A DNA stretch of 61,431 nt, counting the filler. It is 3 parts of 3 records of this genome, joined end to end, with 100 filler letters (N's around TTAATTAATTAA, not from the genome) between each part and the next. Parts side by side here need not be neighbours in the genome. Positions count along the whole stretch, not along the records: positions 1 to 30,570 come from SRR31156797_5481; 2 more parts are not named here. One strand, 5' to 3'. Below are positions 1,197-50,426 of this stretch, piece after piece (position 1 is the stretch's first letter; each line of letters opens with the position of its first letter). Under the pieces are notes generated by a model. That model saw nothing but the letters and a program-made list of their open reading frames with translations, ran no database searches and was not told the origin of the DNA. Position numbers and translations under genes: made by a program.

Positions 1197-2366
1197 TTAT
1201 TGGTATTTCTCTCTGAGGATTTTAGCTGCCGAAACCATTTGCTTCAATTTTTTAAACGCATTCTCATCATCGTTTACACACCTTTCGGCGAAGCAGCCAA
1301 ATCCGCAATCAGTGTTGAGGAATATTTGCTCCGGCTTATAATATTGCAATGCTTCTTCTGCTTTGGCTACGATAAAATCGACAGATTCTATTTCGTCCGT
1401 CCGGGGATTAATTACGCCCAATCCCAGTTCTTTATCATTAAGGGCTTTTCCAACAATTTCAATTTCACCCGCTCTTGGCGTGGCATATTCAAGCACAAAT
1501 TGCTTTACGTTCATTTTCTCGAATGCAGGAAGTAAGGGCAGATAATCGCCTGTTAAAAGGGTTTCTTCATTTCTGCTCCAGTTTCCCCGACATACGTGAA
1601 TGCCAGTTCTCATATCTTCAAAACCATCAACTACCCTGTTGATGAGTTCCGCTGCGTAGTTCAACTCCGTGTCTGCATCTGACCGGGTTGCAAGGGTAGC
1701 TCACATGAAAGTCCGCCGGTCGCAATCCTCCGACATCACAATTTCGGTAAGCACCGGCTCATCAAATTGTACAAATTCACAACCTGCATCACGTAAGTCG
1801 CTCAACTCCTCACGCAAAATCCTCACCACATCATCAGCCATTTCCAGCTTGTTGTTGTAGCCATTTCTGGAGTAAGCTCCAACCCACATGGAACGAGTGA
1901 GCAGGTATGGGCCCGGTAAAGTAATTTTAACCGGTTTATCGGTAAAGCGCTTTACAAAATTGAATTCATCAAGTGTTAATGATCCCTTCCTCGAAAGTTT
2001 TCCAACGCATGTTGGATTTTTTATTGAAGATGCCGGTACATCTAATGTATCCAGCATCTCTTCGAAGCTTTCCTTGTTTTCGATGGTGTCGAGCATATCA
2101 GCCAGCGACATCAATTGTGTTCCTTCGAGTTTATCTGTAAGAAAGGAATAAAAATTATCACGATGATGTTCGCCCTCTACCAGTACATCCACATCAGCCT
2201 CCAACTGGTATTCGATACAGCGCTCAGCTTCCTGGTTTGCAACTTCGTTAAATTCTTCTTCGCTGATCCTGCCCTTTTGTTTGTCGCGCAAAGCCTTTAG
2301 CAGCGTTCTTGAGCGGGGCCAGCTTCCAACCTGGGTAACAGGAAACAGTTGATTACTCTTATACAT
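1197..2366 (-). CDS. Cobalamin-independent methionine synthase II (MetE C-terminal-like) family protein, 389 aa if the in-frame UGA at 1701-1703 is decoded (candidate selenocysteine)
   Basis: ORFs 1701-2366 and 1197-1664 are in the same frame, joined by RRTFM-UGA-ATLATRSDADTEL. Family motifs present: VGSWPRS, VQFDEP, Zn ligands HVC, LEY and DCGF. Confidence 0.85.
1662..1690 (-). promoter_or_regulatory. Candidate bacterial SECIS element
   Basis: Starts at nt +11 after the UGA: CAAC-CCG-GTC[AGATGCA]GAC-A-CGG-A-GTTG, with G at position 2 of the apical loop. Confidence 0.55.
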
Positions 2367-3130: not shown

Positions 3131-3496
3131 TTAATAGGTAATACAGGGAGTTCCCTCTGATAATAGTTCTACAAGTACAGCTCCACCAGCAGGTGTTGCC
3201 CCGTCAATCAGCATATCTTCCGTGATTCCCCTGGTTTTTAAACATGGTGTACAAACCAGAATTTTCCCACCATTTTCTACAAACGTATCCACCAACTCCT
3301 TAAGTGGTTTAAAAGGCTCGCCAATACTGATTTTATCGGCCTCGCCTTTTACAGCTGCCCAAACGCCATCGGTGCTTAAGAATATTGTTGTGTCCTTTTC
3401 GGAACCTAATGCAGCATTTGCTACTACAAACCCTACAGTTGCTGTGTCAGGGTTTTTGTGACAATTGATAATTGAAACGCAAAATTTGTTGTTCAT
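3131..3496 (-). CDS. DsrE family protein
   Basis: IFLSTDGV and GGKILVCTPCLKTRGI motifs, 121 aa. Confidence 0.85.
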   Translation of the reverse strand: MNNKFCVSIINCHKNPDTATVGFVVANAALGSEKDTTIFLSTDGVWAAVKGEADKISIGEPFKPLKELVDTFVENGGKILVCTPCLKTRGITEDMLIDGATPAGGAVLVELLSEGTPCITY

Positions 3497-3518: not shown

Positions 3519-3773
3519 CTATTTCTTTTCGATCAGGAAAAACGGAGGTTCGCCGGCATGCATCCTGTTTCCGGTAGAGCGGCACCACGACAATACATCA
3601 CCCGGATCAAGTGCTTTCAATCGAACCATGGTACCCGACTCAAGAGTCTTAAAAAACTTAAACAAAGCCATAACCAGGTCTCCACAACCAAGCTCTTTGG
3701 TGTCTAACTCAGTGTCAAACTCCCAGTGTACCGGAGCCGAAACGGTGAGTTTGTTATTTGATTGGTTTTTCAA
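3519..3773 (-). CDS. TusA/SirA-family sulfur carrier
   Basis: LDTKELGCGDLV...ALDPG..SWCRSTGN motif. TTG start. Confidence 0.75.
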   Translation of the reverse strand: MKNQSNNKLTVSAPVHWEFDTELDTKELGCGDLVMALFKFFKTLESGTMVRLKALDPGDVLSWCRSTGNRMHAGEPPFFLIEKK

Positions 3774-3970: not shown

Positions 3971-6900
3971 TTATTCAAATGCAATCAATGCAAGTTGGCC
4001 CATAAGATTATGGGTAATCTGCAAAGCAGCAATTATTTTTTGATAATGCACAATATCATCATACGCCAGGCTACGGCCTTTACGGTCTTTGAGCCATTTC
4101 TATGCAGGCTGATAGCCGCCGATATAAAACTGCCAGGCCGTTTCAGGTACCTGATCAAAATATTGCCCTTTGTTGATCCACACTTTTCCATCATCGAAAA
4201 ACACTTTTTCTACCTCATTTGTGCCTGATACCGGAAAAGTAGTAATGAGCCGATCCAGCTCTTTGGTTTCCATAAGATGGGTTTTACGCAGTACTGTGCC
4301 AAATTTCGCCAGTTTAAAAAAGGTCCCGGCATCTTTGGGGTAAGGTATGCGGGGGAAATCAATTTTAAGAAACTCCCGGTATTTCTCCCGGTAGCCGGGA
4401 TGGTGCAGAATGGCGTAAATATAGTCAAGTATCTTCACTGCCCCGAAAAGGCCATCGCAACCGGCAGCAAGGTCAACCACAATGTTTTCGTCCCATAAAA
4501 AAGCGTGGTTTATTTTTGATGCGATTTGCTCAACGATTTCTTCGTTTAGGTTGGGTTTTTTATCGGGGCTTTTTTCTATGGATTGTTGAGGGTTTGATTC
4601 AGGGTAAAGATAAAGTGGGAAAACTGTGCCGCCACCTCTGTAAAAAATATTTTGATCGGAGATTGAATTTGCAATAAATGATAAGTTCCATTGCATTCCA
4701 CCAACGGCTTGTCCTTGTCTCCCAGAAATTAAAGCCCAATTTGCTTTGCTCTGAAAGTTTCGCATTATCCGGTTTTGACTGTATGCAAAAAATCCTTTTG
4801 GTTTCCCAGTATAATACGTGTATCGTTTGTCAAACGGACGGTAAACAATCTCTCGAAAGTTATTATTAGAAAAGTTCTCCTTCAAATCTAAAATAGCTTT
4901 TGAAAGTACCCAATCTCGGCTATCCGATTTAATGTTATATTTTATTCGAATATCATTTTCTGGTAATGAAGTTAAAAAACCTATCCTTTTATTCAATTCA
5001 TCTTTATCAAAATCAACTGTGATTGAATCATTTTTTGATAATACCCCAAGTGAATATTCTAAAAAAAATCAGTCAAACTAAACCCACTATTATAGTCCGC
5101 TTCCAGTTCAAAATTCTTTTCTAACATAAAATAGTTGGGGGCTGCATTGGGCAATTCTTTATAGGGTAGGGTTGCGAGGCTGTTGGTGAACAGAAACCTG
5201 TATTTTTCTTCCCTTTTTCCGTAAAGGTCATAATGGAAAAACCTGCCAAGGTCATCGGGATTCTTTTTCCCTGTTTTCACAAAGAGGTTAATGGAAACGC
5301 CCTGCTGGATATCAAAAACATTTTCGTCGGGCGAGCCATCGGGGCACACTTCTTTTTTCTTGCTGTTGCCGTGCAGGTCGATGGTGTAAATTTTATCATA
5401 GGTTTTCAGCAGGTACCAGCGCATGCCTCTAAAAGTAGGGTTATCCAAAAAACCGTGCGGATTAATGAAAGCCAGTATTCCTTCCTTATTTTTTTCGATA
5501 AAATATTGGCTGTAGCGCATAAATTTTACATAATCATCATTGATCCACTTTGGGTTTTTCTCCTGCAATTTCACTTTGCCACCGGGTTCTTTTTTGTAAT
5601 CTTCCATCAAATCCATAATCCATTTGCCCTTGTTTTGGCTTTCGCCGCTGTAAGGCGGGTTTCCGAGCACCACCATTACGGGCGTATCGCGTTTTATGTG
5701 GTTGGCTTCGTTGGCTTCGGAGGAGAGCCAGCTGGCAAAAAGCGTTCCGGTGTCGGGGTGATGTTCTTCGAGCGAGTTGGTAAGATAAACTTTTAGCCGT
5801 TGGTTGCGGGTAGGTTTGTATCCGGTTTCCTGGAGCAGCATTTCCAGCTTCAGGTGTGCCATAGCGTATGAGGCCATCAATATTTCGAAACCATGCAGGC
5901 GGGGTATCAGGTGCTTTTCCACGTAATCGCTCCAGATTCCTTCCTGTCCATCAAACTTATGGTGGATTTGTTTTACCACTTGCGCCAAAAAAGTTCCGGT
6001 TCCTGCTGCCGGGTCAAGAATCTGAACTTTGTGGGTTTCAAAACGGCCTTCAGTAACACCTTTTCTTCCCTGATAAATATGGCGTTTGTCACCGGTAACC
6101 ATGGGTGTTTTCACAATTACTTTTGAGGTATCTGCCAATCCTTGTGGCAGTCCAAATTCTTTGATCAGGACATCGTCAACAGCCCTCACAATATAATCAA
6201 CCACAGGTTCAGGGGTGTACCATACGCCACGGCTTTTGCGCAGTTTGGGATCATATTCAGCTAAAAAGGTTTCGTAAAAATGAATGATAGGATCGGTTTG
6301 TTGCGTGCTTTTGCCAAAGTCGTTGAGCAAAACGCCAACATCGGCAGCGGCAAATACTTCGGCCAGTGCATCTACAATCCAGCGCAGGCGATCATCCAGG
6401 TCGTATCCTGCAATGTATTGAAAAAGCCGGCGCAAAAAAGGATTTGATTTGGGGATCAGTTCTGCTGCTTCCTGCCGGCTAAAGTCGTACAGGGTTTTAT
6501 CGTTGAGCCTGGCGGCAAACATTCCGTAGGCAATGGTTTGTGCATAAATATCCGAAAAATCTTTTGGCGTAATATCATGGATCAACACATCTTTAAAAGC
6601 TTTATACTGATCGGTGAGGCCGTTGTCGGGCATATCATAAATGCCTTGCTTTCGCCTCGCTTCATCCATGTTTATGGCATTTTCGATGATGTCGGCCATC
6701 ATTCTTGCTTTTGCAGCCATCAGCTTTGACAGGCTTTGTGCCCCTTTAATCGTAATTCCTGTAAAAGTCGCAAAAGCTTCAATCAGTTGTTCAAATTCTG
6801 TTTCATTGTTTGGTGTTGATATAAGCCGGTCGCTAACTATTTCAGCAAGGTTTACTTTGTTCACAAACTCACCGTTGCGAAATAAACGGAACTCAATATA

Positions 6901-7167
6901 ATCGGTGATGATGAGATTGCTGAGTGATTTTTTGTAGCGGGTAAATTGCTCCTTGTAATCTTTGCTGTTGAGCGATTTCCCAATGTCTTTGGCTTCGATG
7001 TAGCCAATGGGCAGTCCTTTTTTTGTGATGATATAATCCGGTGCACCACATTCAATTCTCGAAGGCTCATTGGTAACGGTAATCCCAGAGAGCATTTGCT
7101 CCAGTAATTCCTGCAGGTCGGGGCGATAACTGTGTTCTGCGGAACTTTTCCCTGGTATTGTATGCAT
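3971..7167 (-). pseudogene. Type ISP/IIG-like restriction-modification N6-adenine methyltransferase with C-terminal specificity region, disrupted twice
   Basis: Motifs EHSYR, GVWYTP, LDPAAGTGTF and GNPPY. Frameshift at the T8 tract (5061-5068). In-frame TAG at 4100-4102 inside GGYQPA*KWLKDRKGR, after which the frame continues to TAA at 3971. Confidence 0.85.
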
Positions 7168-19951: not shown

Positions 19952-20243
19952 AAGAATTTGCTTAATAAATGCCGCGCAATCAGGGTTTATTTTGAGATTT
20001 ACATACAACATCCACGGCAAGAAAAAACAAAAAAACAAAGAAAACTATTTCCTGGAGGTCTTTTGGAAGTGATGAGCTTGTGCAGCAATAGATTTTTCTG
20101 TTGGATTAATTGTTCAAAAAAAGCTATTCTCGAAATTATCAGGTTAAAACACATCTATACCAGTGAAATTCTCGGGTTAATATTTTTTAAAATAGAAATG
20201 CCGATCTGAGAAAACCAATTTAAAAAATCATTGTTTGGGTGTT

Positions 20244-21017
20244 ATGAGTATCATCGAGATTGCAATAGGTATTTCTGAAAACATAAATCCTCATGATTTC
20301 ATTCGCGACAGTGGCCCGCTATATCATGAGTTTCACGCCCACGGACTCATCAAGGAACCTTGGAACGCCTTCTCCTCCCTGTTTTTTCTGGTGCCCGTTT
20401 TTTTCTGGATTTGGAAGCTTCGCGGGCAGTATCGGAAATATTGGGTGATAACGGTGTTATTGCCGCTGTTGTTTATGAATGGTGTTGGTTCAACTTTATA
20501 TCATGCGTTCAGGGCTTCTCAGGTAGCACTTCTGCTCGACTGGATGCCGGCATTTGTGATGAACCTGTTCCTGGCCTGGTACATGTGGAACAAAATAACG
20601 AAACGCCCTGTGGTCTCTGTTTTCGCGGTGCTGGGATTTTATGCACTCGCCATATTTTCTGTGATAAGCCTACGGCAGTATATCCAGGAAATGTCGGCAA
20701 ACATTGGGTATCTTTTTATCGGTTTGTCGTTGATGCTGCCTTCATTTATTTACCTCATCAGAACCAGATTCTACAAATGGCATCTGCTTTTTCTGAGCTT
20801 TTTATTTCTGGGGATAGCATTGGTCTTTCGTAGTTTGGATTATCCCACACCGAATCCATTTCCAGAGTTACTTCCTCAGGGTACACATTTTTTATGGCAT
20901 ATCGTAAGTGCTTTTGCGGTGTTTACGCTGGGTTACTTTTTTAAGTTTACCACCGACAGGGAATTACAGTCCAAGCAGGAAACCTCTGTTGATACACGCT
21001 TACAGGCTTCTATGTGA
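20244..21017 (+). CDS. Ceramidase-like/hemolysin-III (CREST superfamily) membrane hydrolase
   Basis: About 7 TM segments, with EPWNA.SS, GSTLYHA, DWMP and GTHFLWH. Confidence 0.72.
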   Translation: MSIIEIAIGISENINPHDFIRDSGPLYHEFHAHGLIKEPWNAFSSLFFLVPVFFWIWKLRGQYRKYWVITVLLPLLFMNGVGSTLYHAFRASQVALLLDWMPAFVMNLFLAWYMWNKITKRPVVSVFAVLGFYALAIFSVISLRQYIQEMSANIGYLFIGLSLMLPSFIYLIRTRFYKWHLLFLSFLFLGIALVFRSLDYPTPNPFPELLPQGTHFLWHIVSAFAVFTLGYFFKFTTDRELQSKQETSVDTRLQASM

Positions 21018-30570: not shown

Positions 30571-30670
30571 NNNNNNNNNNNNNNNNNNNNNNNNNNNNNN
30601 NNNNNNNNNNNNNNTTAATTAATTAANNNNNNNNNNNNNNNNNNNNNNNNNNNNNNNNNNNNNNNNNNNN
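30571..30670. other. Artificial contig spacer
   Basis: N runs flank TTAATTAATTAA (30615-30626). Base composition changes sharply across it. Confidence 0.98.
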
Positions 30671-50326: not shown

Positions 50327-50426
50327 NNNNNNNNNNNNNNNNNNNNNNNNNNNNNNNNNNNNNNNNNNNNTTAATTAATTAANNNNNNNNNNNNNNNNNN
50401 NNNNNNNNNNNNNNNNNNNNNNNNNN
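50327..50426. other. Artificial contig spacer
   Basis: N runs flank TTAATTAATTAA (50371-50382). Confidence 0.98.

Follow-up and report, generated by a model that had tools for sequence, protein, structure and literature searches.

The C-terminal catalytic barrel of MetE (T. maritima 1T7L/1XDJ, C. albicans 3PPC) is a (beta-alpha)8 fold, and a set of "core" folate-independent methionine synthases, MesA-D, has been described (Price et al., 2021, PMC7857596). Among known selenoproteins, methyltransferases, DsrE-like, and OsmC-like proteins are listed in the tables of the GOS and Olavius symbiont surveys and of a 2026 review. The gene considered here lies on the minus strand near one end of a 61,431-nt stretch of DNA, filler included (the whole stretch analyzed, hereafter the window); its product has the same fold as the MetE barrel, and its reading frame is broken by a single in-frame UGA at codon 222. 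From the comparisons below, it is very probable that this UGA is a selenocysteine (Sec) codon, recoded by a SelB-type hairpin 11 nt further on, and that the gene specifies one 389-residue, single-domain, MetE-type zinc selenoprotein. As judged by alignment, the protein is one of a family of its own, whose members have either Cys or Sec at residue 222, apart from one homologue (P0002) with a six-residue gap at this site.

The window is made up of three pieces, split by runs of N at 30571-30670 and 50327-50426, with G+C contents of 42, 60, and 51%. Most likely these are contigs of different organisms that have been joined, so that results for the first piece (42% G+C), where the MetE-like gene sits, do not carry over to the other two. 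Each N run consists of two runs of 44 Ns with 12 bases between them. The features of the gene on which the argument turns are:

1197..2366, minus strand: gene for the MetE-like (Meth_synt_2) zinc enzyme, 389 codons with UGA-222 taken as Sec; last gene of a four-gene cassette
1703..1701, minus strand: in-frame UGA, codon 222, read as a Sec codon from the Cys column of homologues and from its recurrence
1690..1662, minus strand: SECIS-like hairpin (SECIS, selenocysteine insertion sequence) of a Bacteroidota type, 10 bp with two bulged A, loop AGAUGCA at 1680..1674
1598..1596, minus strand: codon of zinc ligand H257, downstream of the UGA
1592..1590, minus strand: codon of zinc ligand C259, downstream of the UGA
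1490..1488, minus strand: codon of zinc ligand E293, downstream of the UGA
1307..1305, minus strand: codon of zinc ligand C354, downstream of the UGA

Translation with table 11 yields two same-frame open reading frames (ORFs), 1701..2366 (221 aa) and 1197..1700 (155/167 aa). The TGA at 1703..1701 is the sole break in the 389-codon frame, in the context ...SEDCDRRTFM-U-ATLATRSDADTELN..., with RRTFM-U-ATLATR immediately around codon 222, followed by S. An earlier reading of the letters alone (the sequence-only reading) had pointed to two ORFs parted only by this UGA, to a bulged hairpin starting at +11 with its loop 20 nt on and a G in second position, and to zinc ligands (HxC, E, C) lying downstream of the UGA; each of these is found as described.

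Such a split frame is also what a pseudogene would give, a plain Cys-type gene having acquired its TGA by nonsense mutation or through faulty assembly, and the rarity of the gene is in keeping with this: among 401 sampled genomes of the phylum it was found in one, G001, the closest genome, whose MetE-like protein is 90% identical to that of the window. We nevertheless give a pseudogene next to no credence. An independent assembly of a public run (possibly the source sample) has a 30,570-nt contig equal to the first piece, at a depth of ~370x, with the gene identical and no variant at the TGA; a related strain, known through a 532-nt contig of another study, has 20 differences over 1475-2006 but none at 1701-1703. 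(Two further runs, X2 and X3, contain the gene only in part, X2 without the UGA region.) Also against loss of function, the same TGA recurs at this codon in many phyla, in the closest family and in metagenomes, and the stretch downstream of it is under purifying selection, as set out below. Record 2 of run X1, a 26,207-nt G+C-rich contig and the second one of its sample, can be compared with the window over 1684-1735, the 52 nt around the UGA; there are six differences, none of them listed at 1701-1703, and another organism in that sample seems to carry a Sec form too.

A search for homologues of the MetE-like protein found 7,498, of which the best 120 were aligned. The column of residue 222 is Cys in 119 of these 120 full-length sequences, which bears out what the sequence-only reading had stated of the homologues (TFMC). 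Recurrence of the UGA in independent genomes, proposed there as a check, was surveyed with one genome per species and a pattern requiring M-TGA-A..L..R.D followed by C-R-G-N-W some 28 codons on. At least 120 loci matched, in the genomes of at least 120 species; 14 named phyla are represented, with 19 of the loci lacking a phylum label. All 120 of the loci listed have the same TGA, and all are true homologues, with the consensus (R/K)R(T/I)FM-U-ATLA(T/A)R. The largest groups among these at least 120 loci are Thermodesulfobacteriota (34), Planctomycetota (23), Verrucomicrobiota (9), Pseudomonadota (8), Acidobacteriota (8), and Bacteroidota (7); two of the matches listed are isolates, Desulfobulbus alkaliphilus DSM 24258 and Desulfopila aestuarii DSM 18488. 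In the Bacteroidota family to which G001 is assigned by GTDB, the gene is present in 10 of 29 genomes, with one TGA in each of the nine matches that span codon 222. For metagenomes, the best 80 loci of 513 relatives were considered; eight were off the motif, and the Sec/Cys count covers the other 72. Seven of these, the closest to the window protein (63-82% identity), have TGA, and 65 have TGC or TGT. No Cys-form DNA was found in a further 400 Verrucomicrobiota genomes sampled for it; the Cys-form DNA used for comparison was taken from the metagenome scan.

In a FastTree phylogeny of 104 Sec and 120 Cys forms, with residue 222 masked as X and midpoint rooting, at least 11 changes between Sec and Cys are needed. 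All 104 Sec forms fall with 38 Cys forms in a clade with a support of 100, whose sister is a pure Cys clade of 82; these numbers are not to be read as frequencies, because the Sec forms came from the pattern scan and the Cys forms from the protein search. The 38 Cys forms within the Sec clade nest mainly among Verrucomicrobiota and Planctomycetota sequences, and the window sequence groups with others from Bacteroidota, Calditrichota, and Chloroflexota.

Several observations indicate that the frame is translated across the UGA. The in-frame sequence ATLATR follows it directly in all 128 Sec forms compared. Between the window and locus L009, codon changes number 90 synonymous to 23 non-synonymous upstream of the UGA and 56 to 16 downstream; six other relatives gave similar ratios, and for one more (L078) the stretch is too short to compare. 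Judged by these counts, purifying selection is acting downstream of the UGA, and equally on both sides of it. It could also be imagined that translation stops at the UGA and that the C-terminal part is made separately, the pieces then assembling: split MetE genes are on record in archaea (PMC7857596), and the window gene has an in-frame TTG at codon 235 that might serve as a second start. This is very improbable in our view, since the 12 codons between UGA and TTG are kept in frame, ATLATR included; since the downstream hairpin would obstruct a ribosome-binding site rather than aid it; and since the break always falls exactly on the codon that is Cys elsewhere, in forms that are single chains.

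At the RNA level, the window hairpin begins 11 nt past the UGA, and its 7-nt apical loop, with G in second position, comes after 20 nt; with columns counted from the U of the UGA, the hairpin occupies columns 14-42, and its calculated free energy is -11.3 kcal/mol (columns 10-46). In its spacing and in the G of its loop, it agrees with the bacterial SECIS model reportedly put forward by Zhang and Gladyshev in 2005. Two types of hairpin can be distinguished among the Sec forms. The Bacteroidota type is found in the window and 12 other Bacteroidota sequences, along with a changed peptide (TRSDADTEL vs. TRRDAG.EL). Over its 11 distinct sequences, 98.2% of cells pair, compared with 19-30% when the partner strand is slid; there are wobble-preserving single changes at two pairs; and third-codon positions are invariant at 7 of 10 sites inside the hairpin but variable at 11 of 11 outside it (hypergeometric p ~0.001). 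The main type, found in most Sec forms, has a 6-bp stem, ACCCGC/GCGGGU, and a loop of CGUGAU or CGGGAU, starting 12 nt past the UGA. Over 120 distinct sequences, 88.6% of its cells pair (33-51% when slid). Its stem changes are nine of G-C to G-U, three of C-G to U-G, and two double ones: L010 has G-C in place of A-U, and L060, from a Marinifilum genome, has A-U in place of C-G.

Stronger evidence comes from comparison with the Cys forms. Third-position entropies at codons 227, 228, 231, and 232 are 0.20, 0.40, 0.34, and 0.96 bit in 128 Sec forms, vs. 1.85, 1.87, 1.60, and 1.73 bit in 65 Cys forms; flanking four-fold sites have 1.6-1.9 bit in both groups alike. The mean folding z-score over columns 13-36 is -1.85 for Sec forms and -0.03 for Cys forms (Mann-Whitney p=4e-18). 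By these measures the hairpin is specific to Sec forms and held by constraint on synonymous sites, and the stem-loop may be described as a putative SelB-type SECIS, with weak covariation.

In carrier relatives, the genes for reading such a codon accompany it. A selB was detected in all ten carrier genomes tested, five of Bacteroidota and five of other phyla, both isolates included. The five Bacteroidota carriers have selD (5/5), selB (5/5), tRNA-Sec (5/5), and selA (4/5 over the cut-off), and in four of them the cluster tRNA-Sec-selA-selB-selD is intact, for example at 96.8-101.9 kb of contig C11 in G001. In the fifth, G005, stops riddle the same cluster, as they do further genes of the assembly. 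Within the closest Bacteroidota family, 25 of 29 genomes have selA, among them all ten with the gene; the four without selA are also without the gene. The sequence-only reading had held Sec use to be sparse in Bacteroidota; although the gene itself turned up in one of 401 sampled genomes of the phylum, this family is rich in Sec machinery. Sec insertion looks canonical.

Two observations on these clusters may be added. At 44-52 kb of contig C5 in G005 (the genome of locus L103), extra stops (TAA, TAG, or TGA) are found in the MetE-like gene and the cassette genes as well as in the sel cluster; either the assembly is prone to errors or the locus is decaying. G001 has, besides the selD of its sel cluster, a second selD match (G001:C3:775623-776549) inside a 743-aa open frame, possibly a fusion.

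The UGA might instead be read through without selenium, with Trp, Cys, or Gly brought in by a suppressor or near-cognate tRNA, or through reassignment of TGA; the Sec interpretation is, after all, derived from sequence, and the sel genes were seen in relatives and not in the window. Some of the evidence speaks directly to this. Of 112 complete pattern-locus genes among the matches listed, 57 end in TGA, ~167 codons past the UGA; therefore, TGA is still a stop codon in the carrier genomes. Three other long ORFs of the 30.6-kb contig (12878..13594, 15848..16993, and 20196..21017) also stop at TGA, as the sequence-only reading had noticed for genes of this contig. Global reassignment of TGA is rejected on these two counts. 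Other selenium-free mechanisms would have to operate in carriers of 14 phyla with the standard code, in which selB was found wherever it was tested, and beside a hairpin whose spacing and loop G are those of the bacterial SECIS model. We regard read-through of this kind as very unlikely, and Sec insertion as the far better account of UGA-222.

At the protein level, PF01717 (Meth_synt_2) matches residues 8-382 with E=7.8e-34, and a match to PF08267 is confined to residues 145-225; with 389 aa, the protein lacks the two-domain, ~750-aa architecture of MetE. Its scores fall short of the methionine-synthase equivalogs (the best, NF003317, at 192 bits vs. a cut-off of 406), and all ten NCBIfam matches are below their cut-offs. 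"Methionine synthase" is here a label for the fold, since the protein has no folate domain and reaches none of the curated cut-offs. An AlphaFold model (mean predicted local distance difference test score, pLDDT, 88.6) is a MetE-type barrel, and the top Foldseek matches are MetE catalytic barrels with template modelling (TM) scores of 0.73-0.75, along with the single-domain structures 3RPD and 1YPX. H257, C259, E293, and C354, which we take to be the zinc-binding residues from what is established for MetE, are invariant in the 120 homologues aligned and in all 104 Sec forms; the protein thus has what defines the catalytic barrel, Meth_synt_2 with HxC, E, and C.

The DEP strand is joined to the helix that follows by a long, flexible loop (212-230), which holds residue 222 and is ~13 residues longer than in E. 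coli MetE. From the topology of the barrel, we infer that this loop would be on the active-site face, with residue 222 over the zinc site. Two further cysteines are worth noting. C358, four residues past C354, is kept as Cys by 102 of 104 Sec forms and by all 34 Cys forms with the motif CGFGCF; of the other 86 Cys forms, 82 have Thr at this column, the residue of the outgroup clade, and 4 have Cys. For C120, Cys is found in 104/104 Sec forms, 34/34 CGFGCF Cys forms, and 76/86 of the remaining Cys forms.

A number of points weigh against a recoded selenoprotein, or against parts of the case for it. The evidence for Sec machinery comes from carrier relatives: none of the sel genes is in the window, where tblastn with the relatives' selA, selB, and selD had no match in any of the three joined contigs, and where tRNA and Rfam scans were likewise empty. 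The stability of the window hairpin is unexceptional (z = -0.72 over 64 nt, -1.6 over columns 10-42), so that its weight comes from conservation. Hairpins of the Bacteroidota type have no compensatory double change in 11 distinct, close sequences, with seven of the ten pairs never varying. Most pairs of the main-type stem are invariant as well, so the structural evidence rests on the constraint at synonymous sites and on the contrast with Cys forms. The loop with residue 222 is modelled at low confidence (pLDDT ~54), and its place over the zinc is a matter of topology. A catalytic role for the residue and a partnership with the carrier proteins described next are suggested by conservation and gene order. 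Finally, one close relative, P0002, is without the six residues RTFM-C/U-A altogether. P0002, a metagenome protein from a contig of 1,156 nt, is the closest full-length homologue (66% identity), and its place in the tree is among the Sec forms of Acidobacteriota. Its gap may reflect natural loss of the Sec site, or may be artefactual.

The MetE-like gene is the last of four close-spaced genes on the minus strand, in the order TusA-like, DsrE-like, TusA/OsmC-like fusion, and MetE-like. The first three are:

3773..3519, minus strand: TusA-like protein, 84 aa, first gene of the cassette; no Pfam match, E=0.001 to the N-terminal domain of the 247-aa protein
3496..3131, minus strand: DsrE-like protein, 121 aa; Pfam DsrE E=2e-14, C82-x-x-C85
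3128..2385, minus strand: fusion of TusA-like and OsmC-like domains, 247 aa, 18 nt upstream of the MetE-like gene; Pfam OsmC E=5.4e-12, TusA E=4e-4, short of the Pfam cut-off

This arrangement is widely kept. Eighty of the at least 120 Sec loci have the 2,300 nt or more of upstream sequence needed to count it; the fusion is present in 75 of them, the DsrE-like gene in 74, and the small TusA-like gene, which in some genomes lies downstream, in 71. Five eligible loci (Verrucomicrobiota and Planctomycetota) have no cassette gene. Among the best 80 metagenome loci, all seven Sec loci have the cassette, and 38 of the 65 Cys loci have at least an OsmC-like neighbor. Each carrier has a Cys pair that is invariant or nearly so: C30 in 79/79 and C64 in 78/79 small TusA-like sequences, C82 and C85 each in 90/90 DsrE-like sequences, and C23 and C61 near-invariant in the fusion. 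Those of the OsmC domain are poorly kept (C181 in 7 and C206 in 67 of 103 cassette homologues); because the cysteines expected of OsmC/Ohr are not conserved, this domain is probably not a peroxidase here. None of the neighbor genes has a Sec codon at a Cys site, the lone apparent case being a stop in the error-ridden G005 assembly.

Sec222 could be the catalytic nucleophile or a redox partner. It would exchange an alkyl group, or sulfane sulfur or a disulfide, between a thiol substrate bound to the zinc and three Cys-pair carriers: the two TusA-like proteins and the CxxC of the DsrE-like protein, putative partners from the same operon. C120 and C358 are candidate selenosulfide partners of Sec222. 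More speculatively, and as an idea that we think rather doubtful, the MetE-like protein and the three carriers may make up an undescribed selenium-dependent system, in which Sec222 on a mobile lid acts as a covalent shuttle of methyl groups or sulfane sulfur between the zinc-bound thiol and a TusA/DsrE relay, replacing the folate or corrinoid protein. To our knowledge, one or the other of these fills that place in all known enzymes of the methionine-synthase type.

The surroundings of the cassette include two other features. Between the convergent gene ends at 1117 (plus strand) and 1197 (minus strand) there is a G+C-rich inverted repeat (1125-1170), likely a two-way terminator. Directly upstream of the cassette, also on the minus strand, are ORFs at 4100-4996 (298 aa, with a Type ISP C-terminal specificity domain) and 5059-7167 (702 aa, with an N6-methylase/Eco57I-type domain), which together look like a Type ISP/IIG restriction-modification enzyme in two pieces.

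No PF01717 or MetE-like selenoprotein appears in the accessible main texts of the GOS survey, the Olavius symbiont survey, Peng et al. (2016), deep-Sep (2025), or BSepDB (2026), nor is there a PF01717 family in the main text and Table 1 (119 families) of the 2026 review, in the version available; the supplementary listings of these surveys may hold one. The view of the sequence-only reading that this is not a classic selenoprotein family agrees with these main texts. A literature search of similar reach returned no report of a MetE-type selenoprotein and none of the cassette. What is new, within the published lists searched, is a MetE-like Sec/Cys family, together with its conserved carrier cassette. 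Because gene callers cut the gene in two, it is annotated as fragments or as a pseudogene, and this loss touches a zinc enzyme of at least 120 species in 14 named phyla. The family would add an enzyme of MetE type, without the thioredoxin fold, to the bacterial selenoproteome, and would tie selenium use to a conserved TusA/DsrE sulfur-carrier cassette; one family of Bacteroidota appears to use Sec widely, with its own variant of the SECIS hairpin. The proposal can be tested directly in two carriers that are in culture, Desulfopila aestuarii DSM 18488 and Desulfobulbus alkaliphilus DSM 24258.

How, then, does the protein compare with known systems? Known bacterial selenoproteins include alkyl-transfer proteins whose nucleophilic Cys is replaced by Sec (methylated-DNA-protein-cysteine methyltransferase and arsenite methyltransferase), besides DsrE-like and OsmC-like ones; like all of these, it would belong to a family with Sec and Cys members and a SECIS within the coding region. 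Unlike these alkyl-transfer, DsrE-like, and OsmC-like selenoproteins, it has another fold and another site, and its own DsrE-like and OsmC-like neighbors carry Cys. With MetE it shares, beyond the barrel itself, the HxC/E/C ligands and the thiol-binding motifs GS(W/F)P, GE..R, and DEP, all of which align, as does DCG with T. maritima MetE. It differs from MetE in being a single domain without the folate-binding N-terminal barrel; in its longer loop after DEP, bearing a Cys or Sec222 that MetE itself lacks; and in being encoded mostly beside TusA-, DsrE-, and OsmC-like genes.

MesA-D, 1YPX, and 3RPD are more similar in architecture, being single catalytic barrels of ~340-390 aa without a folate domain, so that any methyl donor must come from a partner. 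The sequence similarity is weak, with E=1e-20 to 1YPX and E=6e-18 to 3RPD, the latter over residues 7-207 only. The available part of PMC7857596 mentions no Sec forms of MesA-D. The window gene also differs from these in its company: no gene for a corrinoid protein or MesX adjoins it, and its putative partners are carriers of Cys pairs.

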